The notes under the pieces were generated by a model. It ran no database searches, was not told where the DNA came from, and saw only the letters and a program-made list of their open reading frames with translations. A DNA stretch of 64,000 nt from NCBI GenBank assembly GCA_902785705.1, contig CACZZN010000011.1:605-64604 (forward strand), in the 5' to 3' direction. The translations under genes and the position numbers were made by a program. Positions 1 to 45,632 of the stretch are shown here, piece after piece (position 1 is the stretch's first letter; the number at the start of each line of letters is the position of its first letter). This stretch comes from an uncultured Veillonellaceae bacterium. Lineage in GTDB: Bacteria; Bacillota; Negativicutes; Selenomonadales; Selenomonadaceae.

Positions 1-226
1 TAAAGGGCGGTTTTTATTTTTTTCGTGCCGCCTGTTTGGCTATTTTGCGTTCAATGTCGATTTTCTCGTTCATCGTCTGCACCCAAGCATAGAAATCGCC
101 GATTGACAGCTCTAAAAAGTAGTCAATCGGCGATTTGCTGTACTTGGCAAGGCGGAGCGCGGATGTCCGTATTTTACGGATTACTCCGCACCGTAAAAAA
201 ACGTGATACCTTGAGTGCAGCCGCCA

Positions 227-436
227 TTAGCTGTACTCGCTTTCGCCCTGCGGTTCCGGAATCTCGATACCTTCTTCCAATGCCGCCTCTAACCAGCAAG
301 CCTTGGCATCCTCCAGCATATCCAGTATGCCCGCCTTTGTTTCCGATTGCGTGATACATCCCTTCAACTCGGGGATATAACCCACATAGCCGCCCTCCGT
401 GGCTGCCACAATGACCTCTTGATAGGGTAGAGCCAT
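227..436 (-). CDS. hicB: HicB-like antitoxin (UPF0150 fold); no intact HicA partner visible
   Basis: 69-aa ORF. GGYVGYIPELKGC motif followed by a helical acidic C-terminus, as in HicB-family antitoxins. Assigned from family memory only. Confidence 0.55.
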   Translation of the reverse strand: MALPYQEVIVAATEGGYVGYIPELKGCITQSETKAGILDMLEDAKACWLEAALEEGIEIPEPQGESEYS

Positions 437-610
437 ATAATACTATCGTCTTTTTTTCCACCACAAGTACGCCCCCTTCATTTATTTTATGCGTTTGGTT
501 GCGGTTTCCCGCCACCTTCTGCTTAGTCCTCATCCATAACCTCGATGACCTGTTTCACATATTCCTCTTTGACATATGGCTCGTGCTTAGGTACTGTGAT
601 ACTGCAGACG

Positions 611-2379
611 TTTCTAAACCGCCTATGCGGCGGATAACTGTGTCCCCTTCTTTTGGTATCACGACCTGCATTTCTAAACCGCCTATGCGGCGGATAACAT
701 CCTCCTATTGGCTGGGCTGCCTCAGACTTATTTCTAAACCGCCTATGCGGCGGATAACCAATCAAATCAATGCGGCGAATATGCCGTACTTTTCTAAACC
801 ACCTATGCGGCGGATAACGGCAGCATATTTATTGGCGTTCGCCTGTGCTTTTTCTAAACCGCCTATGCGGCGGATAACCTGGGCGTATGCACGATATGCG
901 GAAAAGCCATTTTCTAAACCGCCTATGCGGCGGATAACATCGCGCCTTACGCCGTTTCGGTCAACGATGTTTTCTAAACCGCCTATGCGGCGGATAACAA
1001 GCATCGCTTTCCCATCGGCGATGGCAGACTTTTCTAAACCGCCTATGCGGCGGATAACAGGGGTAGGAGATTGCCGGGTAATTCCAAGGTTTTCTAAACC
1101 GCCTATGCGGCGGATAACATTGGCCTGCTTGAGGCCGTCGATCTCCAGCTTTTCTAAACCGCCTATGCGGCGGATAACCGTATCTTCACGGGCAGCCAAT
1201 CCGCCTGACATTTCTAAACCGCCTATGCGGCGGATAACCAGCTGTCCCATTGACCTTCGCATAGGTCTTATTTCTAAACCGCCTATGCGGCGGATAACTT
1301 GCGCCGCTGCTCCTGATTGCTCTCCCATGCTTTTCTAAACCGCCTATGCGGCGGATAACACCATTACTATCTCTGGGCTATGGAAGTAACATTTCTAAAC
1401 CGCCTATGCGGCGGATAACGGCTGATGCCGATGTCGTTCGGTCCTGCATATTTTCTAAACCGCCTATGCGGCGGATAACTTTTTCAGGCGCACGTTGCGG
1501 CTGCCGCCGTATTTCTAAACCGCCTATGCGGCGGATAACAACCATAGGATAGAGAATGGACAACACCGTATTTTCTAAACCGCCTATGCGGCGGATAACT
1601 CCGTCCTTTTTCTTTTCTCCCCTGCACGGCATTTCTAAACCGCCTATGCGGCGGATAACAAAGAGATGCTCGTTCTCACGGAATGCCCGAATTTCTAAAC
1701 CGCCTATGCGGCGGATAACGGATGCAATCAGCCTTTCCTGCCTTCGCGGTATTTCTAAACCGCCTATGCGGCGGATAACCTTCGGCAGGGCGGGAACGGA
1801 AGCAAGGAAATTTTCTAAACCGCCTATGCGGCGGATAACTTATGATTGCAGACGGAAACGGCGGCGCATATTTTCTAAACCGCCTATGCGGCGGATAACC
1901 TGTGTCTTTATCTGCTCATTGATACCGCCAATTTCTAAACCGCCTATGCGGCGGATAACGAGATGCTGCCGGGGACACGAGCGGCGGCTATTTTCTAAAC
2001 CGCCTATGCGGCGGATAACTACTTCGACAACGGTACGGTATGGCACACCACTTTCTAAACCGCCTATGCGGCGGATAACCTTCGCAGGCGTGAGATAACC
2101 GCCATGTTTGCTTTCTAAACCGCCTATGCGGCGGATAACCGTCATTTTACGCTTCTCCCTTATTTTACGAATTTCTAAACCGCCTATGCGGCGGATAACA
2201 GGCGGCGGCTCCTGCACCTGCGACGAAGGGATTTCTAAACCGCCTATGCGGCGGATAACCAGCCGCAGGATTCACGCGCATGATAGAAGTTTTTCTAAAC
2301 CGCCTATGCGGCGGATAACATTTGAAAGGAGTAATGACAAATGTCTCTTATTTTCTAAACCGCCTATGCGGCGGATAAC
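611..2379 (-). CRISPR. Type I-F CRISPR array, 30 repeats / 29 spacers
   Basis: 28-nt repeat TTTCTAAACCGCCTATGCGGCGGATAAC on the + strand, which is GTTATCCGCCGCATAGGCGGTTTAGAAA on the - strand. This fits the I-F consensus: CCGCC/GGCGG stem and TTAGAAA 3' handle. Repeat starts are 611, 671 ... 1271, then 1332 ... 2352. Spacers are 32 nt except one of 33 nt (1299-1331). One variant repeat at 791-818. Confidence 0.97.
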
Positions 2380-2508
2380 TGTGATGGAAACAGCACTTCT
2401 TCATAGGGAGAAGCTTGCCCCAAGCTTTTGATTGTTTTTACCCAAAAATTTCGATGATCATGGGAGAGCTTGATTTTTCTGCATGGAAAGAGTCGGTTGG
2501 TTTTTTGG
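2380..2508 (-). promoter_or_regulatory. CRISPR leader (cas6f stop to first repeat)
   Basis: 129-bp non-coding stretch upstream of the array in the repeat-defined transcription direction. Contains the perfect palindrome AAGCTTGCCCCAAGCTT (2411-2427). Promoter not pinpointed. Confidence 0.5.
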
Positions 2509-3144
2509 TCAAAATTCTGGTACCGTGGAGATATCGCTTAAGCCGTAGGATCCGAAAGCGTTCTCTATATTTTTCTCTCGGAAGTCCTTTTTTATAAATA
2601 AGCGAAATGGATTTTTGTTGGTTAAGCTTTTCAACTGGATGTAAGGAACATTTTTATCAAATTCTCGCGCGGGAAACAGGGCAAGCGCTTCTTCATAGGA
2701 TATGTTGTGGCGCTTGGCATATCTTCTGGCCTTTTGTTCCGCACTACTCTTTTGATGAAATCGTCTGTAATTGGCATATCCCTTGAGTACGGAGGGGATT
2801 GGGCGGATCGATGTGATATGGACGTAATCCGCCAGTCGAGCGAGACGATCCCTGACAGCAAATTCTTGTAGTGAGGATTCTTCCATTGCGAATAAGCGAA
2901 GTCGATAACCAAATGCACAGGTGGGCAAGCCTTTGGACTTCTCTGCTGACAACGGTTTACGGCAATTGTTTTTTCCGGCGGAGAGTTCTTGATAGTCGGG
3001 AAAAGAAATCCCGATAGGGACATGTCCATGTTCGTCCTGATGGGATGCAAAGCCAAGATGAAGTTGCTGGTATACCTTCGACCAGATGAAATAAGCCGGT
3101 ACTTCTGCGCAGGGGAGGATGGTCAGTTCCTGATAGTATTTCAT
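2509..3144 (-). CDS. cas6f: Cas6f (Csy4) crRNA endoribonuclease
   Basis: 211 aa from ATG 3144, with an AAGGAGT SD just upstream. The 265-aa ORF-track version overlaps cas7f and is too long. MKYYQELTILP...IGISFPDY...FRLFIKK...GSYGLS..VPEF is collinear with remembered Csy4 features. Confidence 0.85.
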   Translation of the reverse strand: MKYYQELTILPCAEVPAYFIWSKVYQQLHLGFASHQDEHGHVPIGISFPDYQELSAGKNNCRKPLSAEKSKGLPTCAFGYRLRLFAMEESSLQEFAVRDRLARLADYVHITSIRPIPSVLKGYANYRRFHQKSSAEQKARRYAKRHNISYEEALALFPAREFDKNVPYIQLKSLTNKNPFRLFIKKDFREKNIENAFGSYGLSDISTVPEF

Positions 3145-3148
3145 AACA

Positions 3149-4180
3149 TTACTCCTTGCTGCTCTGGCCGAAAACGCCGCCGCGAACCAGAACCGCCATG
3201 ACATAATGTTCCTCATTCTCGTTTGCAAGAGATTCTCCCAATGCATAGCGGTCAAACAGGGAATAAAAATCCACTTTGTCTTTTGGATTGCGGAACGCTT
3301 TGCCAAGGTTAGTCACAGCTCCGTAGGGTTCAATGGCAATTGGGCCGATGCCGCTGGCTGTCTCGTACTCTGGGTACCAGGTATCAATAGTGCGGATGGC
3401 ATTGTTCAATTTCTGGGAGTGCATGGCGGCAATTTCATTGACTTGATACAGCACCTTGCTCTTGTCCCCACGCCCTTTGTCGAAGACCAGTTCCTCACTG
3501 GGATAGACCTCCTGCCCTTCACCCAATAAGGCATAGGTTTCGATATCTAATAACAGATAACGTTTTCGTCCACTAAGGGCGGATGCGATTCGACTGGCCA
3601 GTTCTTCTGTTTTTTCATTTTTTTCAAAGTCTTTCAAGGAAAATTCATAAGCATTAAAAACCCATGATTTTTTTTCCTGTTCATTGCTGACATCTGTGAT
3701 TCTGACCTCAATTTTTTCCGCACCCAGTCGATTTCGCCATAGATATCTGGCATTGGCAAGGTTTATCGCATAGCGCCGCCCCAATTCGTGGAACTGTGTT
3801 CTTTCTATATATCGTTTAGCGATTTCCGTATACTTCTGGCTGAATCCGGCATGATTGCAAGCAGAAGGAGTTTCGACACCACTCAATACTTTGAGGGAGA
3901 ATTTCAGTTTCAGGGTGTTGTGGTTCATGGATAGGGCACAAGCGTCAACAAGTTGTAGATTCGGTTTTTCAACTTCGGCATTCAATTTGGCGGGATCGTT
4001 TTTTACCGTATCTTTCAGGCGATTGGAAATCGTGCCACGTACAGACTTTTCCACTAATTTCAGTGGTTCTGCCGGTTCATCTCTGTTCTCCCATGTAGTT
4101 CCATACATATAGCCGTCGGATGCAACTAATTTTTTTTCGAATGCCAATACAGATGCTATGCCAGTTTCTTTCTTTGCCAT
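3149..4180 (-). CDS. cas7f: Cas7f (Csy3) Cascade backbone subunit
   Basis: 343 aa. SVLAFEKKL, EKSVRGTISNRLK, NLANARYLWRNRLGAE, HSQKLNNAIRTIDTWYP, GPIAIEPYGAVT and VRGGVFG blocks are near-collinear with P. aeruginosa Csy3 as remembered. Confidence 0.9.
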   Translation of the reverse strand: MAKKETGIASVLAFEKKLVASDGYMYGTTWENRDEPAEPLKLVEKSVRGTISNRLKDTVKNDPAKLNAEVEKPNLQLVDACALSMNHNTLKLKFSLKVLSGVETPSACNHAGFSQKYTEIAKRYIERTQFHELGRRYAINLANARYLWRNRLGAEKIEVRITDVSNEQEKKSWVFNAYEFSLKDFEKNEKTEELASRIASALSGRKRYLLLDIETYALLGEGQEVYPSEELVFDKGRGDKSKVLYQVNEIAAMHSQKLNNAIRTIDTWYPEYETASGIGPIAIEPYGAVTNLGKAFRNPKDKVDFYSLFDRYALGESLANENEEHYVMAVLVRGGVFGQSSKE

Positions 4181-4192
4181 AATAAAACCTCC

Positions 4193-5104
4193 TCAATGCT
4201 GTTTGGTATTCCATTGATTGCTGTTTTTGCACAGATAGAGTCCAAGTTGGGGAATTGTCTGATAGTTCCACATGATCTCTTCCAAGTCACGGAAGTGGAA
4301 GGGCATTTTAAATTCGCATATCGTGACCACGGATTCCGCAAAATGATGTTCGTAGTCGTAGGAGCGTTGGTGTCGTACCCGCATCGGCCCTGAGATGTCT
4401 TTGAACCCCACGGCCAGCGGAATGAGCCAACCCGGTTGCTGTTTCTGCGGACTCCATTGGGGGATAGCATCTGCCCCTGTGTGTTCTTTCGGGGTAAATC
4501 TGACGGAAAGTACGTCCAACAACTGATCCAAGGTATCTTTTCCCTCCGGCAAAGGCTCTTTCAGAAGGTCGCTGCGGTCAATAATGACGTATCCGGGCAT
4601 CAGACGGCGGACTGCATGGGCAATAGTCTGCGGTTCGTCTTCGTCTACGTACAATATCTGTAAGGTACTTATTTTTTCAATGTCGCCACCGGCAACTTTT
4701 AATTGGGGAAGAATTTCCCGGACCGCACCTAAAAACATATTATCGTTTTCTACGGCAAGATTGTTGAGTTCTATGAGCAGGGAAACGACCAGATGGCAGC
4801 GGGGTTCTTCAATAAAAGGGGGGCGTTCAAATTCTTTTCCCTTTTTTTTCAGAGGATTTGAGGTTCCGATGATCGAATACCTATAGTCATACACCCCTTT
4901 GTACACTTGAACATTGCAGTCATGACAAGAGACTGCAACCTTGCAGAGGTCGATTTCGGGGAAACCGTCGGCCTGGAGTTTTCGCTGCAAGGCGTGAACA
5001 AAGCCAAGCCAGGCCGTCATAGCAGGAAATCCGATGATATAGGAACCGGACAGGGCGTTGGCATTATGAACATGAAGTTTTGGTATCAGCAAGAAAGGCC
5101 TCAT
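4193..5104 (-). CDS. cas5f: Cas5f (Csy2)
   Basis: 303 aa. The N-terminus LLIPKLHVHNANALS...GFPAMTAWLGFVHALQRKL resembles Csy2. ATGA start/stop overlap with cas8f. Confidence 0.85.
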   Translation of the reverse strand: MRPFLLIPKLHVHNANALSGSYIIGFPAMTAWLGFVHALQRKLQADGFPEIDLCKVAVSCHDCNVQVYKGVYDYRYSIIGTSNPLKKKGKEFERPPFIEEPRCHLVVSLLIELNNLAVENDNMFLGAVREILPQLKVAGGDIEKISTLQILYVDEDEPQTIAHAVRRLMPGYVIIDRSDLLKEPLPEGKDTLDQLLDVLSVRFTPKEHTGADAIPQWSPQKQQPGWLIPLAVGFKDISGPMRVRHQRSYDYEHHFAESVVTICEFKMPFHFRDLEEIMWNYQTIPQLGLYLCKNSNQWNTKQH

Positions 5105-6267
5105 AATTGCACCTCCTTGGTGTCCAGCAGGATATCGTGGATTCTGTGGCGTAGGGCATTGAATTCCGCGTCGCCCAGGTCAAAGGCATCCTTTTTCAGG
5201 AGTTCCTGATAGGTGTGAAGCATCCATTCGGCAAACTCTCTTGAAATTTCTTTGCTCCATGTGTCATCGGATTGGCGCTCTTCCTCATAGAGACTGTCCA
5301 GCCAGATTTTTTGATGACGGGATATGCGGCAGGTTTCCGCATCGGACCATCCACTTTCCAAACTTCGGAGCCGAAATACGCGCATAAGGATCCGGTCGAT
5401 GATGGCATCCTCGGCATCTCTTGTATCCCGGCGGATGTCCTTGTTATTCCGCTGTACGCCATAAAGATAATGCAGGTTATAGAACAGGGAGGAATAGCGT
5501 TTGGTTCGCAGCGATTGGAAGAAATTCCGTTTGGGCGGAAGGATTTCCCGCCGGGGAAGGTGCGGAGGAAAGGCGGGGATTAGGTAGGCTCTGCCGCCAT
5601 TCATGTTATTGAGTGTAGATATATTCTGCGGCTTGGTCCCACCAAAACTGCTCTCACTCAGATCAAAAACCTTCCTGTAGGTCGTGAGATATTGATCGCT
5701 TTTTTTATCCTGGGATGCCCTTGCTTGCGCTTCCATGTTACGAAGCCGCTTCCTCAGCTCCAACATCAGGGAAGAAGCGGGAAGAACGGAGAGAAGATGG
5801 TATTGATTCTCTCCGATGGGGAAAAAGACTTGCCGGATTCGCTCATCCGTCGCATCCGGAATATAATCTTCCTTTACATTCAAAATATTATTACGAACCA
5901 CTGTATAGTCGATTTGCAACGAAGAGAGATCCTGACGAAGTTTTTCCGTATTTTCCTTGAAGTGGGAAAGAACCGTTTTTTTATCTTCCAGCTCCAGCAA
6001 AAGGAATCGGGAGATAGCGAGAAACGCAGCCGATGATACGGTGATATCTTTGGTGCAGGCAACCGCATCCGTGGTGATATATCCGTCGAGGGTGTCGTTC
6101 TTTACGCTATGGGATATCTTTACGTCTGCGGACGGATGGGAAAAGCGGCCAACATAGAAAGACGTCGTGCATTTTGAAGCATTCAGGGATGTTGCCATGA
6201 GCCATTCTTCTACATTTTTTCCTTTTTTGGCCGCCTCTTCGGTCATATAGGACATTATGATATTCAA
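5101..6267 (-). CDS. cas8f: Cas8f (Csy1) large subunit
   Basis: About 390-aa ORF in the canonical slot between cas2-3 and cas5f. No diagnostic motif recognised. Start chosen as TTG 6267, 7 nt after GGAGG (6279-6275). Alternatives: ATG 6256 or the ORF-track start 6291. Confidence 0.75.
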   Translation of the reverse strand: MNIIMSYMTEEAAKKGKNVEEWLMATSLNASKCTTSFYVGRFSHPSADVKISHSVKNDTLDGYITTDAVACTKDITVSSAAFLAISRFLLLELEDKKTVLSHFKENTEKLRQDLSSLQIDYTVVRNNILNVKEDYIPDATDERIRQVFFPIGENQYHLLSVLPASSLMLELRKRLRNMEAQARASQDKKSDQYLTTYRKVFDLSESSFGGTKPQNISTLNNMNGGRAYLIPAFPPHLPRREILPPKRNFFQSLRTKRYSSLFYNLHYLYGVQRNNKDIRRDTRDAEDAIIDRILMRVFRLRSLESGWSDAETCRISRHQKIWLDSLYEEERQSDDTWSKEISREFAEWMLHTYQELLKKDAFDLGDAEFNALRHRIHDILLDTKEVQL

Positions 6268-6301
6268 GGTTCTCCCTCCTTGAGACTGCAATCATATTTG
6301 C

Positions 6302-6485
6302 ACCTGAATCCGTGAAACTGGATGGATGTATGATGTACTTGCTATGTCCGCCCCCTTGGGGGCGGGGAACCATCGAAGATGGTGGTGGGGGTGACGATTT
6401 TGACACATTGCCCCCCACCACCGCCGATGGCGATCCCCCGCCCCCAAAGGGGGACGGACAGTGTTCGAGTTTCACGGATTCAGGT
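6302..6485. repeat. ~185-bp imperfect palindrome rich in G and C runs (predicted cas8f leader hairpin)
   Basis: Perfect 17-bp terminal arms: ACCTGAATCCGTGAAAC (6302-6318) and GTTTCACGGATTCAGGT (6469-6485). Inner arms: GTCCGCCCCCTTGGGGGCGGGGA vs TCCCCCGCCCCCAAAGGGGGACGGAC, and GGTGGTGGGGG (6381-6391) vs CCCCCCACCACC (6411-6422). Confidence 0.85.
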
Positions 6486-6492
6486 TGTATAT

Positions 6493-6521
6493 AAGATACC
6501 ACGATAGCAGAAAATAGTCAA
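6493..6521 (-). promoter_or_regulatory. Putative sigma70 promoter TTGACT-N14-TGG-TATCTT (extended -10) pointing into the palindrome and cas8f
   Basis: - strand TTGACT at 6521-6516, TGG at 6501-6499, TATCTT at 6498-6493. The predicted transcription start (~6486) coincides with the 5' base of the palindrome. Confidence 0.45.
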
Positions 6522-6523
6522 TA

Positions 6524-6544
6524 ATAATTTTTTTAATATCAAGG
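6524..6544 (-). promoter_or_regulatory. Predicted self-target of the mini-CRISPR guide (protospacer 6542->6524 plus CC PAM 6544-6543)
   Basis: - strand CC|TTGATATTAAAAAAATTAT is 17/19 identical to the psi-spacer. Mismatches are only at positions 12 and 18. The site lies 2 bp from the -35 TTGACT. Confidence 0.5.
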
Positions 6545-6546
6545 AT

Positions 6547-6621
6547 ATAATATGCCGCCTGTCCGGCGGCTAAAAAAATTTCTTTAATATCAATTTCTAA
6601 GCCGCCTGTTCGGCGGAGGTA
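6547..6621 (-). CRISPR. Degenerate single-spacer mini-CRISPR (psiR1 - 19-nt psi-spacer - psiR2), CreA/CreR-like
   Basis: psiR1 (6621->6594) TACCTCCGCCGAACAGGCGGCTTAGAAA is 21/28 identical to the array repeat. psiR2 (6574->6547) TTTAGCCGCCGGACAGGCGGCATATTAT is 19/28 identical. Both keep the CCGCC/GGCGG stem. The spacer is TTGATATTAAAGAAATTTT. Confidence 0.65.
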
Positions 6622-6627
6622 TTCTGC

Positions 6628-6656
6628 TTGCGACAAAAGAATTTTTGATGTATACT
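6628..6656 (+). promoter_or_regulatory. Putative promoter TTGCGA-17-TATACT for the + strand small RNA
   Basis: TTGCGA 6628-6633, 17-nt spacer, TATACT 6651-6656. Confidence 0.45.
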
Positions 6657-6662
6657 GATAGC

Positions 6663-6759
6663 AAAGAGGGGTGCCGCCTAGCGGTTTCGCCCTCAGATGG
6701 GATATCCTTAGATTACCCGCCTTCTAAGCTAGCAACTAGGAAAGGCGGGTTACTTTTTT
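6663..6759 (+). ncRNA. Candidate ~95-nt small RNA convergent with, and overlapping the 3' end of, the peptide gene
   Basis: Bounded by the promoter above and an intrinsic terminator: ACCCGCCTT (6715-6723) / AAGGCGGGT (6742-6750) followed by TACTTTTTT. Has an internal GAGGG...CCCUC hairpin. No plausible SD plus start codon. Confidence 0.4.
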
Positions 6760-6815
6760 ATCGTCATGAGGATCAACAAAATCAACAGCAAAGCCATGAT
6801 CAGGTTATCATCCAT
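6750..6815 (-). CDS. 21-aa hydrophobic peptide MDDNLIMALLLILLILMTIKK (type I toxin-like)
   Basis: ATG 6815 lies 7 nt after the strong SD AAAGGAGGG. Stop TAA 6752-6750. Single predicted TM helix with a KK tail. The SD can pair in a GCCCUC/GAGGGC hairpin (6843-6822). Too short for the ORF track. Confidence 0.45.
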   Translation of the reverse strand: MDDNLIMALLLILLILMTIKK

Positions 6816-6869
6816 AGGCGAGCCCTCCTTTCGCAGTGAGGGCAAGCTCCGCCGAACGGCACCATGGAT

Positions 6870-6899
6870 ATTATAACGTGTTTATTTACATATTGACAA
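6870..6899 (-). promoter_or_regulatory. Putative promoter TTGTCA-18-TATAAT for the peptide gene; -35 lies inside the last codons of cas2-3
   Basis: - strand TTGTCA 6899-6894, TATAAT 6875-6870. The cas2-3 stop is at 6888-6886. Confidence 0.5.
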
Positions 6900-9800
6900 G
6901 AGAAGAATCTGTGAAATTGTGTTTTTGCTTATTCGGGTCATTCTTTTTCCATAAGCCTAACTGATCAGAATAAAGCAGGGTATATCGCGAACCCGCGCCA
7001 TAATACGGTATTGTAATCCTGCCGAATTTTTCGCTGAGAGATTCCATTCTTGCCTCTTCTGCTTCGGGAGGGCAGTCGGGATGCAGAGCCTGTTCCCGAA
7101 GGGACGCTATATAGTCCCGCTCCAGCCAAAGTCGTTTCTTTGCAGTAGTATCTATCATATCCGTAGCAAATTCAATATGGTAGCTATCTTCCTTAGCGAT
7201 ATACTCTCCCGTCCTTGCCCGTTCATAGAATTTGGGTTTTCGATTTCTATAGCAGAGGCATAGCGGGATTTGCGGAGTTCCATCCCGGAATGGATGGAGC
7301 ATCTGCGGGAGTCCCGTCATCCACCAATATTCCCTGAGATATCCGTGCAATGTGTCGGGGCCGACGGCAGATATATCACAGAAGTCCTGCATGACTTGAT
7401 GTTCCAAATGAATCAGGTGCTTTCCCGGTTCCAGAGGGAATGGCTTGCGGATTCTCGGAACGGCATCTACTTTCGTCAGCAGATCAGACGCGTTTACCAA
7501 GTCGTTCATATCGTGGCTATCCAACGGATACCGTTCGGATGTTTCATAGCCGGGATGACAAAAAGCCGGACTTTTGCCATCCAGTCCTTTGAGATTGTAT
7601 TGCAGGATGGCAATATTGGGAGTGGAGATATCTTCCTTGAGGTTCCGATGGCGGAGAACCCTTCCCGCCAGCTGGATGATGGAGCGGTAGGAGGATGGCT
7701 CCACCACAGCCCAGTCAAAATCATGATCCCGGCCGATTTCTTCCACGGGTGTCGAGATGACAAGAAAAAGAAGATTTTCCTCAGAGACGCTATTGATATG
7801 TGAACGGAGAACAGGATCGTCCGAAAGGATGGAAGAGGCGGCTCCTTTGCGTTTTAATACCCGGTCCAGGTAAGTTTCCTGCTCATGGCGCAGCAGCAGC
7901 GTCTGACGACTGTGATAGGTCATCAGACGTACGGCATAGCCTGCCCAATCCGCATGCAGGAGAAACAGGCTCAGGTATACGCAGGGATCGATGTTTGCCA
8001 TGCGGATCAGACCAAAGGATATTTTCTTCCCGGATACGGTGTCGATGAAACAGTGGGCGTTATGCAGGGAAATGGCGGTTTTCTGTATTTGTGCGAAATA
8101 CAGAAGCCTCTGCTGCGATTCCTCCACATTTTCTTCTTTAAGGATCGGTACAAGACATGCTTTTCGCTTGACCATTTGCCGGTCAAGTTTCATGATTCGC
8201 TTATCTACGAACTCCCGGTGAAGTTTTTTGTATTCTTGTCCGAAAGTTTCTGAGTTTCCCGAAATCGGACAAACTGCCGTTCTGAATTCATCGCACCAAG
8301 CACAGAGGATTTGCGCATGCTGTTGAGTGAATCCGTTGTAGAGAACACGACCTTCCCAATAGGCGCAAAACAGTCCTTCTGCCAGGTCAGGCGGGATGGT
8401 AGCAGACGAAATTGCTACATTTCTTCCCAACATACCGGCTAAATGGACAAGATGGGCGATGGGAATCAGGTCGTTTGCATTGAAATCGTCCACTTCGTCG
8501 ATTACAAGGTCGGATGACATCAACCGCAGGAAAGGCAGCATGTATTTGCCTCCCCGAGTGCTTTCCGTCGCGCGGATGAGATGGTCAATGGTTGCAACGA
8601 GTACCGGTTTATAGAGAAAGGCCCGATTTTTCTTTGTGAAGCCGGGCTTGTTGTTGTCAAAGAAAATGTCGAGAAAGCTGTCCGAACTATCCAGTGCATA
8701 GTGAATGCCACTATCCAGCAAATCCTCCTGCCCTTCTTCCCCAAAAACGGAATCCTCCTGTGTCTGTTGGTACAGTTCTTGTACCGCGGAATCGCCAATC
8801 AGGACGGCCAGTTCGTCCTCGTCCAGGCCGATGCGCTGACGATATTCGGTTCCTGTCTGCAGAGTCAGGGAACGTAACCCCAAGGCAAGGACGTAGCGAA
8901 GGGATTTTCCGTCTTTTGATACAGCTTGCATGATTTTGGCATTAGCGATGGTTTTCCCGCAACCCGTACTTGCCATGTTCACGATGAACCAGCCATTTTC
9001 CGCGTCCGTGTCCTGTGCCTCACGGAAATAGCGGATGGTCTCCACTGCGGTATCCTGCCAAAGGAAGGGTTTGGGACTTTTCTTCCTCAAAGAACGGATG
9101 TCTCTGGCGAACTCCATCCGTTCGGCCAGTTGAGGCAGACGATGCGCGATTTTCAAAGCCTGTGCCGTCACACGTACCAGATGTTCATCCAGTTTCTGCC
9201 CGCCACCGGATTTGGCGTACAGATCGCAGTCCGTTTTCCAATTCGGGTCGGCAGGATTGGAAGAGGAAGAGACGTAATAATCCGCCATCATCATGCTCAG
9301 ACGCGCGTAATGCAGAACAGGACGCAGGGACGGAGTATCAAGAAGCCGCAGGATGTGTTCCCGTTCCTCCGATAGCCTTTGTGCCCACTTCTTCACCTGC
9401 TTGCTCCAAGGGTCGGATTTCTTCAGGAGCCCACGGGCGAATTTGACCGGGACGGAGGTGTCCTTCTGATATCCCCAATTGCTTTCTATGACTGACAGTA
9501 CGGAGGAAAGGGAGTTCTTTGCGTTCCCCTTGTACTTCGTGGCAATCTCCTTGTCTAAGACAGGCATACGGTGGTGGGTGAGGATGAGCCAGCAGATGAG
9601 ACTTGCAATAGGAGGGAAATGGGAGAAGGGTTCATCCATCACATCGGGAAGTTTCTTCAGGATCTGCTTCTCATCGAAGGATTGATTTTGCAAACTTTCC
9701 ATCCATATCCTGTCATCCTCTCCGGATTCCGTGGCTGCAATCAGAGCAGAAATCAATTTGCAGGAGATCCATTCGTGTCGGAAAGGGTCCTTCCCTTTGG

Positions 9801-10218
9801 ACGGTGCTGTCAGCATTTTCTGAAAGGCATGATTCGCTTTCCCCCAGTCATGCAGCAAAGAAGCCATGGCCGTCAATGCCTTGATGGCTGGTAGATATAC
9901 CCAGTGGTTTTCCCACTCGCCATGACGAATGTTTTTCTTTGTGGAGTGGACGGGTACGGTTCCCTGCTCGTTGAACTTGTCCCGATTTCCCACGATCCAC
10001 AAAAGTTCGCTCCGATTCCTGGAGCGAATCCAGTGGCAAGCGACCGCCGTATTTTTTGTGGCGGATTTTCGTAAGAGCATTTTCACGGTTTGCAGACCAT
10101 CTTCCGTAATGATGGTTTTCCATGTATCGTTACCGATGCGATCGGCGAAGGTATCCAGAATTTTTCTGGTAGACTGGAGAGATTTCTTTTCGCTGCGGCT
10201 CGTAAACAGGACCATCAT
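6886..10218 (-). CDS. cas3: Cas2-Cas3 fusion (type I-F Cas2/3 nuclease-helicase)
   Basis: 1110 aa. N-terminal ~95-aa Cas2-like module, HD region (LLHDWGKANHAFQ), Walker A (NMASTGCGKT) and a DEVDD helicase box. ATGA overlap with cas1. Confidence 0.9.
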   Translation of the reverse strand: MMVLFTSRSEKKSLQSTRKILDTFADRIGNDTWKTIITEDGLQTVKMLLRKSATKNTAVACHWIRSRNRSELLWIVGNRDKFNEQGTVPVHSTKKNIRHGEWENHWVYLPAIKALTAMASLLHDWGKANHAFQKMLTAPSKGKDPFRHEWISCKLISALIAATESGEDDRIWMESLQNQSFDEKQILKKLPDVMDEPFSHFPPIASLICWLILTHHRMPVLDKEIATKYKGNAKNSLSSVLSVIESNWGYQKDTSVPVKFARGLLKKSDPWSKQVKKWAQRLSEEREHILRLLDTPSLRPVLHYARLSMMMADYYVSSSSNPADPNWKTDCDLYAKSGGGQKLDEHLVRVTAQALKIAHRLPQLAERMEFARDIRSLRKKSPKPFLWQDTAVETIRYFREAQDTDAENGWFIVNMASTGCGKTIANAKIMQAVSKDGKSLRYVLALGLRSLTLQTGTEYRQRIGLDEDELAVLIGDSAVQELYQQTQEDSVFGEEGQEDLLDSGIHYALDSSDSFLDIFFDNNKPGFTKKNRAFLYKPVLVATIDHLIRATESTRGGKYMLPFLRLMSSDLVIDEVDDFNANDLIPIAHLVHLAGMLGRNVAISSATIPPDLAEGLFCAYWEGRVLYNGFTQQHAQILCAWCDEFRTAVCPISGNSETFGQEYKKLHREFVDKRIMKLDRQMVKRKACLVPILKEENVEESQQRLLYFAQIQKTAISLHNAHCFIDTVSGKKISFGLIRMANIDPCVYLSLFLLHADWAGYAVRLMTYHSRQTLLLRHEQETYLDRVLKRKGAASSILSDDPVLRSHINSVSEENLLFLVISTPVEEIGRDHDFDWAVVEPSSYRSIIQLAGRVLRHRNLKEDISTPNIAILQYNLKGLDGKSPAFCHPGYETSERYPLDSHDMNDLVNASDLLTKVDAVPRIRKPFPLEPGKHLIHLEHQVMQDFCDISAVGPDTLHGYLREYWWMTGLPQMLHPFRDGTPQIPLCLCYRNRKPKFYERARTGEYIAKEDSYHIEFATDMIDTTAKKRLWLERDYIASLREQALHPDCPPEAEEARMESLSEKFGRITIPYYGAGSRYTLLYSDQLGLWKKNDPNKQKHNFTDSSLVNM

Positions 10219-11186
10219 ATCTCTTCACGCTCCTTGGGCATGGAAAGACTTTGTTCCTTGATTTTTTCGAAAATAAAATCAAGCGCTTTGTGATCTGTGA
10301 ATTTTTGTAGACATATCTGTCGAAATTCCTGGCTCGTTCGGCCATATCGGGCAGAGATAAAAGCCCATGGCAAAACAATAGCATCTTTGATTAGGTCTGC
10401 GGCATCAAACACAAGTGCTCCACGTCTGGTTTTTCCGTGCATCAGAGCAAATCCATGTGGAATGCCCAATACCCAAAGCGCCGTTGCTCCCAATCCGTAG
10501 GCCAGATAATTCCCATGGTTCAAGAAACGATTTGCATCATCATGCGCATTCGGGTTTCTTTTGAAGTCTGGAGTGTCTGTTCTGCCAGCGGTGTAATGGT
10601 AAAGACTTTTGGTGAATTGGGCTTCGTCGCTTAGCAGTTCGGTGACATGACGTGCTTGTTCGATGCGGTTTCGGAATCGTTGGATGGCCTGCTCGATTTC
10701 CTGATCGTCCGGATAGAGACCTTCCTGTTGGAGTTCTCTGTCTTTGCCCCAGGTCTGAAGAAAATAGTCGCAACGGGCACGCTGTAATTGCTTTGCGGCG
10801 AAAAGCCGCTTTTGCTCATCGAACCAAAAAGAAAGCCAGCCTTGGACGTATTCTGTGGGCCTGTATTCGCTTTGTGGGGTAATCCACTCAACTTCTGTAC
10901 CGGAAAAGAGCGGCGTGCCGCCACCGCCACAGAATCCGACCAAGACGCCGGCGGCTGCCAGCATACGCATGGCAGCCTGCGTGACGGAAGTCCCTGTTCC
11001 GAGGAGTATGACCGTCGTATTTCCAATGGGAATGTTCCAATAGAGATTTTCTTTTTTTGCTTCTGTCAGATATAGGATTCGTCCATCTTTTTGCATGACA
11101 CGGCATTTTTCCAAGTAGTAGATATTGGCACGTTTAGAATGCAGGATAGTTTTCAAATCAGATGGCGTTATGGTTGTTTTTTTCAT
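10215..11186 (-). CDS. cas1: Cas1 integrase (I-F subtype)
   Basis: 323 aa. Size, position and blocks such as TVILLGTGTSVTQAAMRMLA and NRFLNHGNYLAYG fit Cas1. AAGGTG SD upstream. Confidence 0.9.
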   Translation of the reverse strand: MKKTTITPSDLKTILHSKRANIYYLEKCRVMQKDGRILYLTEAKKENLYWNIPIGNTTVILLGTGTSVTQAAMRMLAAAGVLVGFCGGGGTPLFSGTEVEWITPQSEYRPTEYVQGWLSFWFDEQKRLFAAKQLQRARCDYFLQTWGKDRELQQEGLYPDDQEIEQAIQRFRNRIEQARHVTELLSDEAQFTKSLYHYTAGRTDTPDFKRNPNAHDDANRFLNHGNYLAYGLGATALWVLGIPHGFALMHGKTRRGALVFDAADLIKDAIVLPWAFISARYGRTSQEFRQICLQKFTDHKALDFIFEKIKEQSLSMPKEREEI

Positions 11187-11517
11187 TCGCTACACCTTAC
11201 TCAGTCACCCGGATTTCCTGGTAAACTTACCGGACACCTTCGGTGTCCACACGTCCTTACTCCCAAGTCAATCCTCCATAAACCTTGCAGTATGCTAATT
11301 CCATTATAGCATTTCCATTGGTGCAAGGACAGTTCTTTTCAAGAAAGTCATCTTGAAATGATACTTCACTATGCCCGAATGACAAAAATTACGTAAACAA
11401 ATCCCGGAATCGTTCGGCGAATGCCATCCCCATGCTTTGGATGCCGAAAACAAATAAGCGGTATCCCTCAGAGAACTTTTCTAAATCAAAAATTGCAGCA
11501 TCCTCCATTCCCATGTT

Positions 11518-12618
11518 ATGATAGGAAAACACAAGGAGGTTTTTGGGGATGGAACAACAAACGATCGGTCATGCGGAACTTTTGGAGCAGGTGCCCGCGC
11601 CTTCTGGCGTGAACAGCCCACCCCCTACCGCGTCTGGCTGTCGGAGATCATGCTGCAGCAAACGCGCGTGGCTGCGGTCATGCCCTATTTTGAACGGTTC
11701 CTGGAAACGCTTCCCTCAATCTCCGCACTTGCGGAAGCCGACGAGGAAACGCTCATGAAGCTCTGGCAGGGGCTCGGCTACTACAACCGCGCAAGAAATC
11801 TGCAAAAAACCGCCCGAATCGTCATGGAAAAACATCGTGGCATGCTGCCCGAGAAATTCGAGGATCTGCTCGCCCTGCCCGGCATCGGGAGATACACTGC
11901 CGCCGCCATCAGCTCCATTGCGTACGGGCATTGCCATCCTGCCGTGGACGGCAATGTGCTGCGGGTCATCACAAGACTCCTGTGCTATGGCGAGGATATT
12001 TTGAAAGACCGTACCAAGCGCACGATGGAAGATGCGCTGCGGAAGATGTATCCCCGAGACAAGGCAGGTACACTGAACCAAGCCCTGATGGAACTCGGCG
12101 CAACGGTCTGCGTCCCCCATGGGGCGCCGCTCTGCGGGGAGTGCCCGCTGCAGTCCCTCTGCCTTGCCAAAAAAGAACACCGCATCGAGGATTATCCTCA
12201 TAAGGCGCAGGCAAAAAAACGCCGTGTCGAATACCTCACGATCCTGCGCTTGGAGCAAAACGGCTGTTTCGCCATCCATAAGCGGCCTTCCAAGGGACTG
12301 CTCGCAGGTCTCTGGGAGCTTCCGCATCTGGAGGGCTGGCCGGAAAAGCAGGAGCTCCGGCATACGCTTCAACAATTTGGGCTTGCCCCTCTCTCCATGA
12401 AAGCCCTGCCGGACGCGGTCCACATTTTTTCCCATGTGGAATGGCACATGAAGGGCTGGCATGTACGCCTCGCGGATGCGTCTTATGTCGCGGAGCACGC
12501 TGCCCCACTCTCCCCCATGCCCGATGAGCTCATTTGGGAAACGCCCGCCGTGCTCGCTCAAAATTACAGCATCCCTGCAGCGTTCCAGTATTTTTTGCCC
12601 GACACATGCAGGATTTGA
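11518..12618 (+). CDS. mutY: A/G-specific adenine DNA glycosylase MutY (start uncertain; see findings)
   Basis: PYRVWLSEIMLQQTRV, GLGYYNRARNL, HhH GIGRYTAAAI, a Cys cluster (CVPHGAPLCGECPLQSLC) and a C-terminal NUDIX-like domain. Confidence 0.85.
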   Translation: MIGKHKEVFGDGTTNDRSCGTFGAGARAFWREQPTPYRVWLSEIMLQQTRVAAVMPYFERFLETLPSISALAEADEETLMKLWQGLGYYNRARNLQKTARIVMEKHRGMLPEKFEDLLALPGIGRYTAAAISSIAYGHCHPAVDGNVLRVITRLLCYGEDILKDRTKRTMEDALRKMYPRDKAGTLNQALMELGATVCVPHGAPLCGECPLQSLCLAKKEHRIEDYPHKAQAKKRRVEYLTILRLEQNGCFAIHKRPSKGLLAGLWELPHLEGWPEKQELRHTLQQFGLAPLSMKALPDAVHIFSHVEWHMKGWHVRLADASYVAEHAAPLSPMPDELIWETPAVLAQNYSIPAAFQYFLPDTCRI

Positions 12619-24758: not shown

Positions 24759-24844
24759 TGGTGGGCAGGGATGGATTCGAACCATCGTAGCCGTAAGGCG
24801 ACGGATTTACAGTCCGTTCCCTTTAACCACTCGGGCACCTACCC
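24759..24844 (-). tRNA. tRNA-Tyr (GTA)
   Basis: 86 nt. GGGTAGG/CCTGCCC acceptor stem, anticodon loop CTGTAAA, long variable arm, GGTTCGAATCC T-loop, encoded CCA. Confidence 0.93.
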
Positions 24845-24850
24845 ACATCA

Positions 24851-24928
24851 TGGTGACCCAGGAGGGACTCGAACCCCCGACCCTTTGATTCGTAGTCAAA
24901 TACTCTAATCCAGCTGAGCTACTGGGCC
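24851..24928 (-). tRNA. tRNA-Arg (ACG)
   Basis: 78 nt. Anticodon loop CTACGAA, GGTTCGAGTCC T-loop, CCA. Confidence 0.93.
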
Positions 24929-24953
24929 ATGATATGAAAACTTTATGCAATTG

Positions 24954-25030
24954 TGGTGGGCCCACTTGGACTCGAACCAAGGACCGACCGGTTATGAGCC
25001 GGTTGCTCTAACCAACTGAGCTATAGGCCC
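24954..25030 (-). tRNA. tRNA with CAT anticodon (Met, or lysidine-modified Ile2)
   Basis: 77 nt. Anticodon loop CTCATAA, GGTTCGAGTCC T-loop, CCA. The body resembles ileX-type tRNAs, but this cannot be decided from sequence alone. Confidence 0.9.
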
Positions 25031-25068
25031 ATAAATATCAATCCGGCTGACCGGATGCATAAACAGAA

Positions 25069-25143
25069 TGGAGCGGAAAACGAGGCTCGAACTCGCGACC
25101 CCCACCTTGGCAAGGTGGTGCTCTACCACTGAGCTATTTCCGC
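25069..25143 (-). tRNA. tRNA-Gly (GCC), copy 1
   Basis: 75 nt. Anticodon loop TTGCCAA, AGTTCGAGCCT T-loop, CCA. Confidence 0.93.
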
Positions 25144-25147
25144 GACA

Positions 25148-25222
25148 TGGAGCGGAAAACGAGGCTCGAACTCGCGACCCCCACCTTGGCAAGGTGGTGC
25201 TCTACCACTGAGCTATTTCCGC
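25148..25222 (-). tRNA. tRNA-Gly (GCC), copy 2 (identical tandem copy)
   Basis: Sequence identical to copy 1, 79 nt upstream of it. Confidence 0.93.
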
Positions 25223-25292
25223 GTCCTCCTGCCAAGCACTCCCACAGGATCAACAAACAATCCCCCGTGCCAGTGGCTGACTGACAAAGACT

Positions 25293-43132: not shown

Positions 43133-43221
<89 letters not shown>

Positions 43222-43222
43222 C

Positions 43223-43311
43223 GGAGTGGTACTCAAGAGGCTGAAGAGGACGGTTTGCTAAATCGTTAGAGTCGCAAGGCTGCGAGAGTTCGAATCTCTC
43301 CCACTCCGCCA
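43223..43311 (+). tRNA. tRNA-Ser (GCT)
   Basis: 89 nt. Anticodon loop TTGCTAA, long variable arm, AGTTCGAATCT T-loop, CCA. Followed by a terminator hairpin at 43325-43361. Confidence 0.93.
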
Positions 43312-45401: not shown

Positions 45402-45540
45402 CAGGACATGCCTGACAAACGCCATAGGGTATATTTTGCCTATGGCAAAATTTGAACAATTGCGTTATGTCAGGACAAGCCTGACGAAACGCCATAGGGT
45501 ATATTTTGCCTATGGCAAAATTTGAACAATTGCGTTATAA
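45402..45540 (+). repeat. Tandem 69/70-bp duplication carrying palindromic operator-like sites and the glgB promoter
   Basis: Unit CAGGACA[T/A]GCCTGAC(G)AAACGCCATAGGGTATATTTTGCCTATGGCAAAATTTGAACAATTGCGTTAT occurs twice (45402-45470 and 45471-45540). Only the second unit ends in TATAAT. Confidence 0.9.
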
Positions 45541-45632
45541 TGAGTTCAGCGTGTTTCACGAAAAAATTCATTTGGGATGGGAGGGAGCAGATAGGATCTC
45601 CGCTCATGGGGATTTTATCAAGGCGAAAATGT

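Follow-up and report, generated by a model that had tools for sequence, protein, structure and literature searches.

A conserved 21-codon gene with a predicted convergent antisense RNA between cas2-3 and cas8f of a Selenomonadaceae type I-F CRISPR-Cas locus: a candidate type I toxin-antitoxin-like cassette

What does a 21-codon open reading frame (ORF) do between the cas2-3 and cas8f genes of a type I-F CRISPR-Cas locus (short palindromic repeats, clustered and regularly interspaced, and their associated genes)? The question is raised by a 64,000-nt stretch of contig CACZZN010000011.1 from an uncultured Veillonellaceae bacterium, called the window throughout, in which the type I-F gene set around the gap is canonical (cas1f, cas2-3 and csy1-4). 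An initial annotation had taken the frame for the gene of a hydrophobic peptide resembling a type I toxin. Comparison with related loci indicates that the ORF is a genuine, selected small-protein gene. We further lean, without great assurance, towards the view that the ORF and a convergent antisense RNA of ~97 nt form a compact (~250 bp) cassette resembling a type I toxin-antitoxin (TA) system, as judged from conserved sequence features. The parts of this putative cassette are listed here.

6750..6815, minus strand: 21-codon ORF plus stop (ATG 6815, TAA 6752-6750), product MDDNLIMALLLILLILMTIKK
6870..6899, minus strand: promoter of the peptide gene, P_pep (-35 TTGTCA 6899-6894, 18-nt spacer, -10 TATAAT 6875-6870)
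6816..6863, minus strand: 48-nt 5' leader, in which an anti-Shine-Dalgarno (anti-SD) segment, GCCCUC 6843-6838, can pair with GAGGGC 6827-6822
6715..6750, in both transcripts: GC-rich hairpin, ACCCGCCTT ... AAGGCGGGT
6670..6700, minus strand: 3' fold-back segment of a read-through mRNA, of which CCGCUAGGCGGCACC (6684-6670) is predicted to pair with the 5' end
6628..6656, plus strand: antisense RNA promoter (TTGCGA, 17-nt spacer, TATACT)
6663..6759, plus strand: predicted antisense small RNA (sRNA) of ~97 nt, with a 5' stem-loop and a terminator hairpin followed by U6

On the minus strand both ends of the ORF, the two pairing segments of the leader and the promoter were verified at exactly the coordinates given by the initial annotation, and the hairpin that it had placed right at the stop spans 6750-6715, with its first base inside the TAA codon.

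Contigs encoding relatives of the window's Cas8f were retrieved and their gaps were compared with that of the window. The relatives came from metagenome assemblies (93, 89, 70, 59 and 54% identity), and further alleles were obtained via cluster members of Cas8f and Cas2-3; contigs are denoted by L numbers below. A homology search with the Cas2-3 C-terminus returned only fragments of ≤50% identity and no additional alleles, and exact peptide words of Cas8f found zero relatives among 185,579 genomes. Judging by sample names, the source metagenomes of the relatives resemble rumen studies. Leader, ORF and hairpin were found on 14 metagenome contigs belonging to three clades, with Cas8f 54-93% identical to that of the window, and comprise five distinct cassette variants. 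Identity between clades is 92-94% for the leader and 86-91% for the ORF, the leader RNA thus being the more conserved of the two; in the flanks it falls to 56-66% over the final 600 nt of cas2-3 and to 61-71% over the initial 600 nt of cas8f.

The start, stop, frame and length of the ORF are intact in 15 of 15 copies (14 contigs and the window). Its product occurs as three alleles, which differ at residue 5 (L5, S5 or T5) and residue 12 (I12 or M12).

Window clade: MDDNLIMALLLILLILMTIKK
70% clade (L013-15): MDDNSIMALLLMLLILMTIKK
54% clade (L003-6, L010): MDDNTIMALLLILLILMTIKK

Over the 66 nt of the ORF the window and L003 differ by 9 nucleotides; seven codons are altered, six of them synonymously. 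When nine substitutions were placed at random in 200,000 Monte Carlo trials, a fraction of only 2e-5 changed one residue or fewer. Conservation in homologous gaps was one of the checks that the initial annotation had named for its peptide gene, and in all three clades the frame and the hydrophobic peptide are kept. The peptide has the described layout of an acidic N-terminus, a hydrophobic helix (a core of 15 residues) and a terminal KK. Its grand average of hydropathy is 1.58 overall and 3.3 for core residues 5-19, and in hydropathy it is equalled or surpassed by just 7 of the window's 1592 short frames (top 0.4%). The ATG is preceded at a distance of 7 nt by a 9-nt Shine-Dalgarno sequence (SD). 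An upstream in-frame TTG at 6845, which would give an ORF of 31 amino acids, lies within the anti-SD and lacks an SD of its own; ATG 6815 is preferred. Codon 5 (6801-6803), where the hydrophobic core begins, forms a local hot spot of change: all 3 nt differ from clade to clade (CTG Leu, TCA Ser, ACC Thr), and the codons next to it do not vary.

P_pep agrees with the consensus at 11 of 12 positions, and it outranks every other promoter-like site in 6200-7000. Promoter-like sites are not enriched in the gap (4 found versus 1.6 ± 1.5 expected), so the case rests on conservation. The -10 hexamer TATAAT is invariant in all clades and lies 6 nt upstream of GGTGCC or AGTGCC, and the -35 hexamer reads TCGACA in L013 and TTGTGG in L003. 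The leader had been described as burying the SD, and folding agrees with this: the GCCCTC/GAGGGC hairpin is present in both the minimum free energy and the centroid folds, GAGGGC lies inside the SD AAAGGAGGG (6830-6822), and the probability that the SD is unpaired is 0.007 in the window. Over all alleles and transcript lengths the hairpin appeared in every fold, with unpaired probabilities of 0.007-0.14. Sequestration of the ribosome-binding site (RBS), as in type I toxin mRNAs, is therefore predicted by all of these models.

The length of the transcript had a large effect on the predicted stability of the mRNA. For an mRNA ending at the hairpin, the predicted fold is no more stable than expected by chance (z -1.1). 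A read-through mRNA to ~6660 (204 nt) is predicted to fold at -80.5 kcal/mol (z -4.05, with 0 of 200 shuffles as stable), and with separate shuffles the alleles of the window, L003 and L010 came to a z of about -4.7. In the predicted fold the 5' end of the leader, GGUGCCGUUCGGCGG (6863-6849), is the 5' arm of a long-range helix in which GGUGCCGUUYGGCGG pairs with CCGCUAGGCGGCACC over 15 bp; in addition GGGCGA (6692-6687) pairs with UCGCCU directly before the AUG, and CCAU (6700-6697) with AUGG. All mRNA helices were retained by RNAalifold over the five variants. One compensatory change, G-C to A-U, occurs in the terminal pair of the 15-bp helix; since the same change would disrupt a pair in the antisense RNA's own stem, the mRNA fold-back is favoured. 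We regard the long-range 5'-3' helix as likely but not proven.

A convergent RNA had also been proposed by the initial annotation, and the predicted gene for it is conserved in three clades with its promoter and its hairpin/U6 terminator. Counterparts of the promoter are TTGCAG-17-TATACT (L013) and TTGCAA-17-TATAAT (L003/L010), the hexamers and the 17-nt spacing being kept while the spacer sequence is ~47% identical. The predicted sRNA folds at -35.2 kcal/mol (z -1.9) with the same architecture in the three clades. Its complementarity to the mRNA is perfect over codons 19-21 and the stop, over the hairpin and over the entire 3' fold-back segment, and the predicted overlap of antisense RNA and mRNA is at least 43 nt. 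The hairpin of the window allele has no U-run on the minus strand (GGCGGGTAATCT); on the plus strand a U-run is present (GGGT-TAC-TTTTTT, 6751-6759) and is the complement of the KK codons. From this layout the window hairpin would act primarily in terminating the convergent RNA. U-runs flank the hairpin on both sides in the L003 clade. One compensatory U-A/C-G pair was seen in the terminator hairpin. Codons 17-21 and the stop, which lie over the terminator and U-tract, are invariant even at synonymous sites, and codons 12-16 drift; such invariance is expected under a dual coding and terminator constraint. Neither cassette RNA had a match in Rfam.

Two other roles for the plus-strand RNA were considered and rejected. 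Pairing in trans with the leader or the SD, as in the par system, was no better than expected by chance, shuffled sRNAs being equal or better in 55-86% of trials. The 3' overlap would consequently be the route of any sRNA action, as it is for convergent type I TAs in Firmicutes. A coding role was rejected because the GTG frame abuts an SD-like run without spacing and diverges after 8 codons between clades.

Since the ORF, the SD hairpin and the convergent RNA gene are all conserved, the architecture fits the class of convergent, 3'-overlapping type I TAs. By its sequence the peptide also has the properties of a small hydrophobic protein of that kind (<60 amino acids, a predicted transmembrane (TM) segment, a charged C-terminus). 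For Firmicutes, type I TAs have been described in a convergent, 3'-overlapping form with a sequestered RBS, in C. difficile also beside CRISPR arrays (PMC5961336). The host, a member of the Selenomonadaceae (Negativicutes), lies within the group for which the convergent form is described. The window's BioA clusters at ≥90% identity with proteins of Selenomonas ruminantium, and a Selenomonadaceae metagenome-assembled genome is represented in the cluster of its Cas2-3.

In the mechanism that we propose, the strong sigma-70 promoter would produce an mRNA that is held untranslated, with the SD hidden by the local hairpin; in read-through transcripts the 5' end would also fold onto the 3' segment, which would pair with bases around the AUG. 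The antisense RNA would pair with the last codons, the stop, the hairpin and the 3' fold-back, and the mRNA would be degraded or silenced. Should the locus be lost or its transcription stop, the short-lived antisense RNA would decay first and the peptide would be made. The peptide, a single short TM helix whose head is acidic and whose tail is KK, would insert in the membrane and cause growth arrest, which would penalise loss of the CRISPR-Cas locus or abort infection. We infer the production of both RNAs, the translation and toxicity of the peptide, the relative stabilities of the RNAs and the biological role.

Several points weigh against a type I TA. All of the evidence for it is sequence evidence from three clades, with few independent substitutions and a shallow phylogenetic depth, and the long-range helix is supported by a single compensatory event, in a terminal pair near the presumed transcription start site. 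The -35 hexamers of P_pep in L003 and of the antisense promoter in L013 fall under the scan threshold. No U-run follows the hairpin on the mRNA side in the window or in L013, which leaves the 3' end of the mRNA undefined. At 21 amino acids the peptide is at the short extreme for a toxin, and it had no match at E ≤ 10 in Pfam, NCBIfam or PADLOC; of the type I TA initially proposed, the selected ORF, the SD-sequestering leader and the convergent RNA gene stand, but a match to a known toxin family is missing. Many type I TAs are multicopy or carried by mobile elements. Every known copy of this cassette occupies the one gap, never a plasmid, phage or viral contig: a codon-degenerate peptide pattern gave 0 matches in contigs of 185,579 representative genomes and 0 in viral contigs, the fold-back motif gave 0 matches in viral contigs, blastn of the cassette against plasmids and phages returned nothing, and the exact leader pattern found in JGI metagenomes only two contigs already in the comparison set.

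The gap contains a second element, 130 nt downstream, which went unmentioned in the initial annotation's finding.

6547..6621, minus strand: degenerate mini-CRISPR, psiR1-psiS-psiR2
6621-6594, minus strand: psiR1, 21 of 28 positions identical to the array repeat, with hairpin and CTTAGAAA handle kept
6593-6575, minus strand: psiS, TTGATATTAAAGAAATTTT, 19 nt
6574-6547, minus strand: psiR2, 19 of 28 positions identical to the array repeat, with hairpin kept and handle degenerate
6544-6524, minus strand: target, consisting of a protospacer-adjacent motif (PAM), CC (6544-6543), and a partial protospacer, TTGATATTAAAAAAATTAT (6542-6524), 3 bases past psiR2
6493..6521, minus strand: probable csy-operon promoter (TTGACT, 17-nt spacer, TG-n-TATCTT)

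The array with which the repeats were compared (611-2379) has ~30 repeats of GTTATCCGCCGCATAGGCGGTTTAGAAA, and psiR1 matched Rfam CRISPR-DR4 with 28.1 bits (E 5e-4). The psiS target is unique in the 64 kb (0.06 expected by chance), with mismatches only at positions 12 and 18, and the -35 of the csy promoter begins 2 nt past the protospacer. Homologues of the mini-array were found in L013 (3824-3925), L003 (3815-3925), L010, L012 (3812-3915) and L021 (1313-1412). The guides differ among clades, and across five clades the target follows the guide at 10 of 11 variable guide positions; guide mismatches occur at positions 6, 12 and 18, and the match ends at 16-20 nt. L021 showed the same guide/target pattern on inspection. 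The targeted promoters in the other clades score 9-12 out of 12 and are always beside the target. Because the guide co-varies with a site abutting the cas8f -35, the mini-CRISPR is, on this comparative evidence, a CreR-type autoregulator by which the Csy complex would be directed to the cas8f promoter.

No convincing dedicated promoter of the mini-array was seen at any locus examined, and the mini-array may be fed by read-through from P_pep. Two further candidates were rejected. A second psiS target near P_pep was not found; the likeness of GATATTA/GGTATT to the complement of the -10 comes without a CC PAM and with seed mismatches. A divergent plus-strand promoter at the target (TATAAT 6546-6551) is without a -35 and is not conserved in L013 or L003. 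We also observed that leader positions 6857-6847 (GTTCGGCGGAG) are perfectly complementary over 11 nt to the 5' arm of psiR1 (6618-6608, CTCCGCCGAAC), both on the minus strand; in L013 10 of 11 positions match, with one G-U, and in L003 the complementarity is weaker.

Comparison of the gaps also bears on how the cassette came to its place. A mini-array without the cassette is found in L012 (Cas8f 44% identical) and in L021, a Selenomonadaceae metagenome-assembled genome, and in Pectinatus frisingensis (L020) cas2-3 and cas8f are just 10 nt apart, without a gap. The order of events was likely a contiguous operon, then gain of the mini-array, then insertion of the cassette between cas2-3 and psiR1. 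The cassette is, judged from these gaps, an add-on to the locus.

Of the alternatives, the one that survives best takes the product for a non-toxic small membrane protein, or the ORF for a leader whose translation decides whether transcription reads on into mini-CRISPR and csy operon. A terminating ribosome would mask the 5' arm of the hairpin, the hairpin would not form and transcription would continue; the antisense RNA would be a modulator or a mere terminator partner. The embedding of the stop codon in the hairpin is in keeping with this idea, and so is the lack of a convincing promoter of the mini-array, which may need read-through from P_pep or from cas2-3. The L003-clade hairpin is a true terminator in the mRNA direction, and the leader RNA exceeds the ORF in conservation. 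However, an attenuation leader would need neither a conserved amino acid sequence with free synonymous change nor a TM-like core with a KK tail. L012 and L021 run the mini-array without the cassette, and a tightly sequestered strong SD that comes with a conserved antisense gene of its own is what toxin control typically shows. We consider this alternative unlikely, if worth keeping in view.

The neighbouring guide brings up another possibility, that the cassette is a CRISPR-repressed toxin of the CreT/CreP kind (type VIII TA) kept silent by the mini-CRISPR and freed by loss of Cas or by anti-CRISPRs. The genomic niche is that of the published I-F CreTA/CrePA modules, the SD, mini-ORF and GC hairpin look superficially like CreT, and the guide 130 nt away is a bona fide CreA/CreR-like guide; the name CreR, moreover, is used only until a partner toxin has been identified (bioRxiv 10.1101/2023.03.10.532045). 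Yet the sole PAM-flanked psiS match lies >320 nt downstream of P_pep, beyond the guide gene, and P_pep has no co-varying match in the window, L013 or L003. CreT is known to be toxic through the identity of its codons; in the present ORF it is the amino acids that are kept while the codons change. A predicted antisense regulator belongs to the cassette itself, mini-arrays occur without the cassette (L012, L021), and in folding neither psiR1 nor Cas6f cleavage had an effect on access to the SD and AUG. On the grounds of target placement, codon drift, the antisense gene and the cassette-free mini-arrays, the ORF was not filed as CreT or CreP, and we regard such an identity as improbable.

It is highly improbable, in our view, that cassette and mini-CRISPR form one unit, a hybrid of type I and type VIII-like addiction. 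P_pep would then be the main promoter, the silent toxin mRNA and the CreR guide would share a single precursor, and a Cas6f cut at psiR1 may set the 3' end of the mRNA. Loss or inhibition of Cas may alter the fate of the toxin mRNA, either through the 11-nt complementarity of leader and psiR1 or through altered transcription converging on the antisense promoter, which adjoins psiR1. Transcripts with four different 3' ends (hairpin, fold-back segment, Cas6f cut in psiR1, beyond psiR2) were folded. Access to the SD and AUG and the 5'-3' helix were unchanged at all of these ends, so refolding by Cas6f cleavage or read-through was rejected and the folding lends no support to the coupling. We give next to no credence to a chance ORF in a conserved non-coding RNA region from which no peptide is made, its conservation reflecting RNA structure or the antisense RNA only: RNA-level conservation of the leader and 3' region and the strong sequestration of the SD speak for it, but the conserved frame, the synonymous bias (six of seven codon changes, P = 2e-5), the conservation of the cassette above that of its flanks, the extreme hydrophobicity and the placement of the SD effectively exclude it.

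We also compared the candidate type I TA-like cassette with described systems. The convergent type I TAs include par (Fst/RNAII) of E. faecalis and txpA/RatA and bsrG/SR4 of B. subtilis, and the Fst and Bsr toxins have ~30 amino acids. With the convergent TAs of Firmicutes the cassette shares a small hydrophobic peptide with a positive C-terminus, a sequestered RBS, a predicted antisense RNA over the 3' end and a terminator hairpin in common; unlike them it is single-copy and restricted to one lineage. Unlike par, it has no 5' complementary repeats, and pairing of sRNA and leader is not above chance. In C. difficile, CD2517.1/RCd8 and its relatives are type I TAs adjoining CRISPR arrays, with peptides of 50-53 amino acids (PMC5961336). 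The physical association with CRISPR-Cas is a likeness to these, but the cassette lies inside the cas operon, between cas2-3 and cas8f, rather than beside the array, and its peptide of 21 amino acids has no sequence similarity to the C. difficile, Fst or Bsr toxins.

The enterobacterial Ibs peptides have 18-21 amino acids and are nearly all hydrophobic, and the Sib RNAs cover the whole ibs ORF. A very short hydrophobic peptide with a predicted cis-antisense RNA is common to Ibs/Sib and the cassette; in the cassette, by contrast, the overlap is limited to the last codons and the 3' region, the phylum is another one and there is no homology. In hok/sok and aapA1/IsoA1 the primary mRNA is held inert by 5'-3' pairing and SD sequestration, and the antisense RNA targets the 5' leader of the 3'-processed mRNA. 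The predicted cassette mRNA likewise combines 5'-3' pairing with SD sequestration, but its predicted antisense RNA covers the 3' end and no processing is known.

The initial annotation had seen nothing of this type described between cas2-3 and cas8f. The novelty of the peptide family is upheld, but the gap itself is the published home of CreTA, CrePA and mini-arrays. The cas3-csy1 gap hosts CreTA in Acinetobacter WCHA45 (PMC10097628), CrePA in A. baylyi ADP1, in which CreP is a KilAC protein toxin of 103 amino acids (bioRxiv 10.1101/2024.01.05.574328), and CreTA1/2 in P. aeruginosa, with a proline-codon CreT (bioRxiv 10.64898/2026.06.02.729485). Autoregulatory I-F mini-arrays also lie in the gap, with a reporter assay made in P. 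aeruginosa YL84 (bioRxiv 10.1101/2023.03.03.530964), and CreR-type guides have been described for I-F, with validation in P. aeruginosa (bioRxiv 10.1101/2023.03.03.530964; 10.1101/2023.03.10.532045). Likenesses to CreTA/CrePA are the gap, the adjoining psiR1-psiS-psiR2 guide, and a candidate small toxin equipped with strong SD and hairpin; the guide also shows the same PAM-proximal match of 19-20 nt with tolerated mismatches at every sixth position. In CreTA/CrePA, however, the target is at the toxin promoter with the toxin downstream, an arrangement not found in the window, L013 or L003; here the target is at the cas8f promoter and the peptide gene lies upstream of the guide. Their toxins are a codon-specific RNA or a KilAC protein, whereas the present candidate is a membrane peptide with its own antisense RNA. 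From the CreR mini-arrays there is no substantive difference apart from the new lineage (rumen Selenomonadaceae) and a short psiS of 19 nt.

Type I TAs near CRISPR arrays and CRISPR-linked toxins in this gap are thus already known; what is new is the peptide family, the position beside a CreR guide in an I-F operon and the host lineage. If confirmed, the peptide would represent a new and unusually small (21 amino acids) family of peptide toxins riding inside CRISPR-Cas loci, and the I-F cas3-csy1 gap would be seen to recruit classical antisense-controlled toxins beyond the Cascade-repressed CreT and CreP. The locus bears on whether standalone CreR guides are truly without a toxin partner and on how CRISPR-Cas loci may be stabilised or backed up by abortive infection. 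From the comparative series the order of acquisition can be read explicitly and put to the test. The six guide/target pairs that co-vary offer a clean natural data set on the extent of complementarity required by an I-F regulatory guide, 16-20 nt in which each sixth position is free. Were the hybrid true, it would be the first antisense-controlled peptide toxin also wired to a CRISPR RNA-like regulator.

The genes on either side of the gap, and an insertion next to it, were also analysed.

6886..10218, minus strand: cas2-3, stop TAA 6888-6886, allele of 1110 amino acids
5101..6267, minus strand: cas8f/csy1, most likely start TTG 6267, 388 amino acids as in all homologs, SD AAGGAGGG upstream
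6303..6484, no strand assigned: palindromic insertion of 182 nt in the cas8f 5' untranslated region, resembling a miniature inverted-repeat transposable element, with 17-nt terminal inverted repeats CCTGAATCCGTGAAACT

The initial annotation had placed P_pep in the last codons of cas2-3. The -35 does overlap them in the window, but this is incidental and due to an allele-specific frameshift. Within 6886-6945 (minus strand), a 1-nt deletion in an A-run replaces the LWKKE* C-terminus with a 17-residue extension and thereby brings the -35 within codons. Most cas2-3 alleles stop ~50 nt earlier, at 1093 amino acids and LWKKE* (as in L019 and L007), and P_pep is wholly intergenic in L013 and L019. 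The true start of cas8f is, by comparison with its homologs, most likely TTG 6267 and not TTG 6291, the mechanical ORF start; an ORF from TTG 6291 would take in cas8f's own SD. The insertion folds as a near-perfect palindrome (-119.9 kcal/mol, z -11.2) and is single-copy in the window. It is missing from the sister alleles L007, L001 and L019, and gap lengths suggest that L016 and L017 carry it. In contig L007, cas8f is shortened to 251 amino acids and is followed by a sigma-70 family gene in place of csy2 (2861-3379); this locus is rearranged or degraded, yet its cassette and mini-array are intact.

The G+C content of the CRISPR-Cas region (window 1-12000) is ~48-50%, compared with 52-56% elsewhere in the window, a difference in composition consistent with horizontal acquisition of the locus. 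Farther along the window, clusters of tRNA genes are found at 24762-25222 (minus strand) and 43133-43308 (plus strand), and in the former a perfect 79-nt tandem duplication (25068-25223) gives two identical tRNAs. A 70-nt unit occurs twice, with 97% identity, at 45402-45538, just upstream of an ORF of 709 amino acids (45522-47651).

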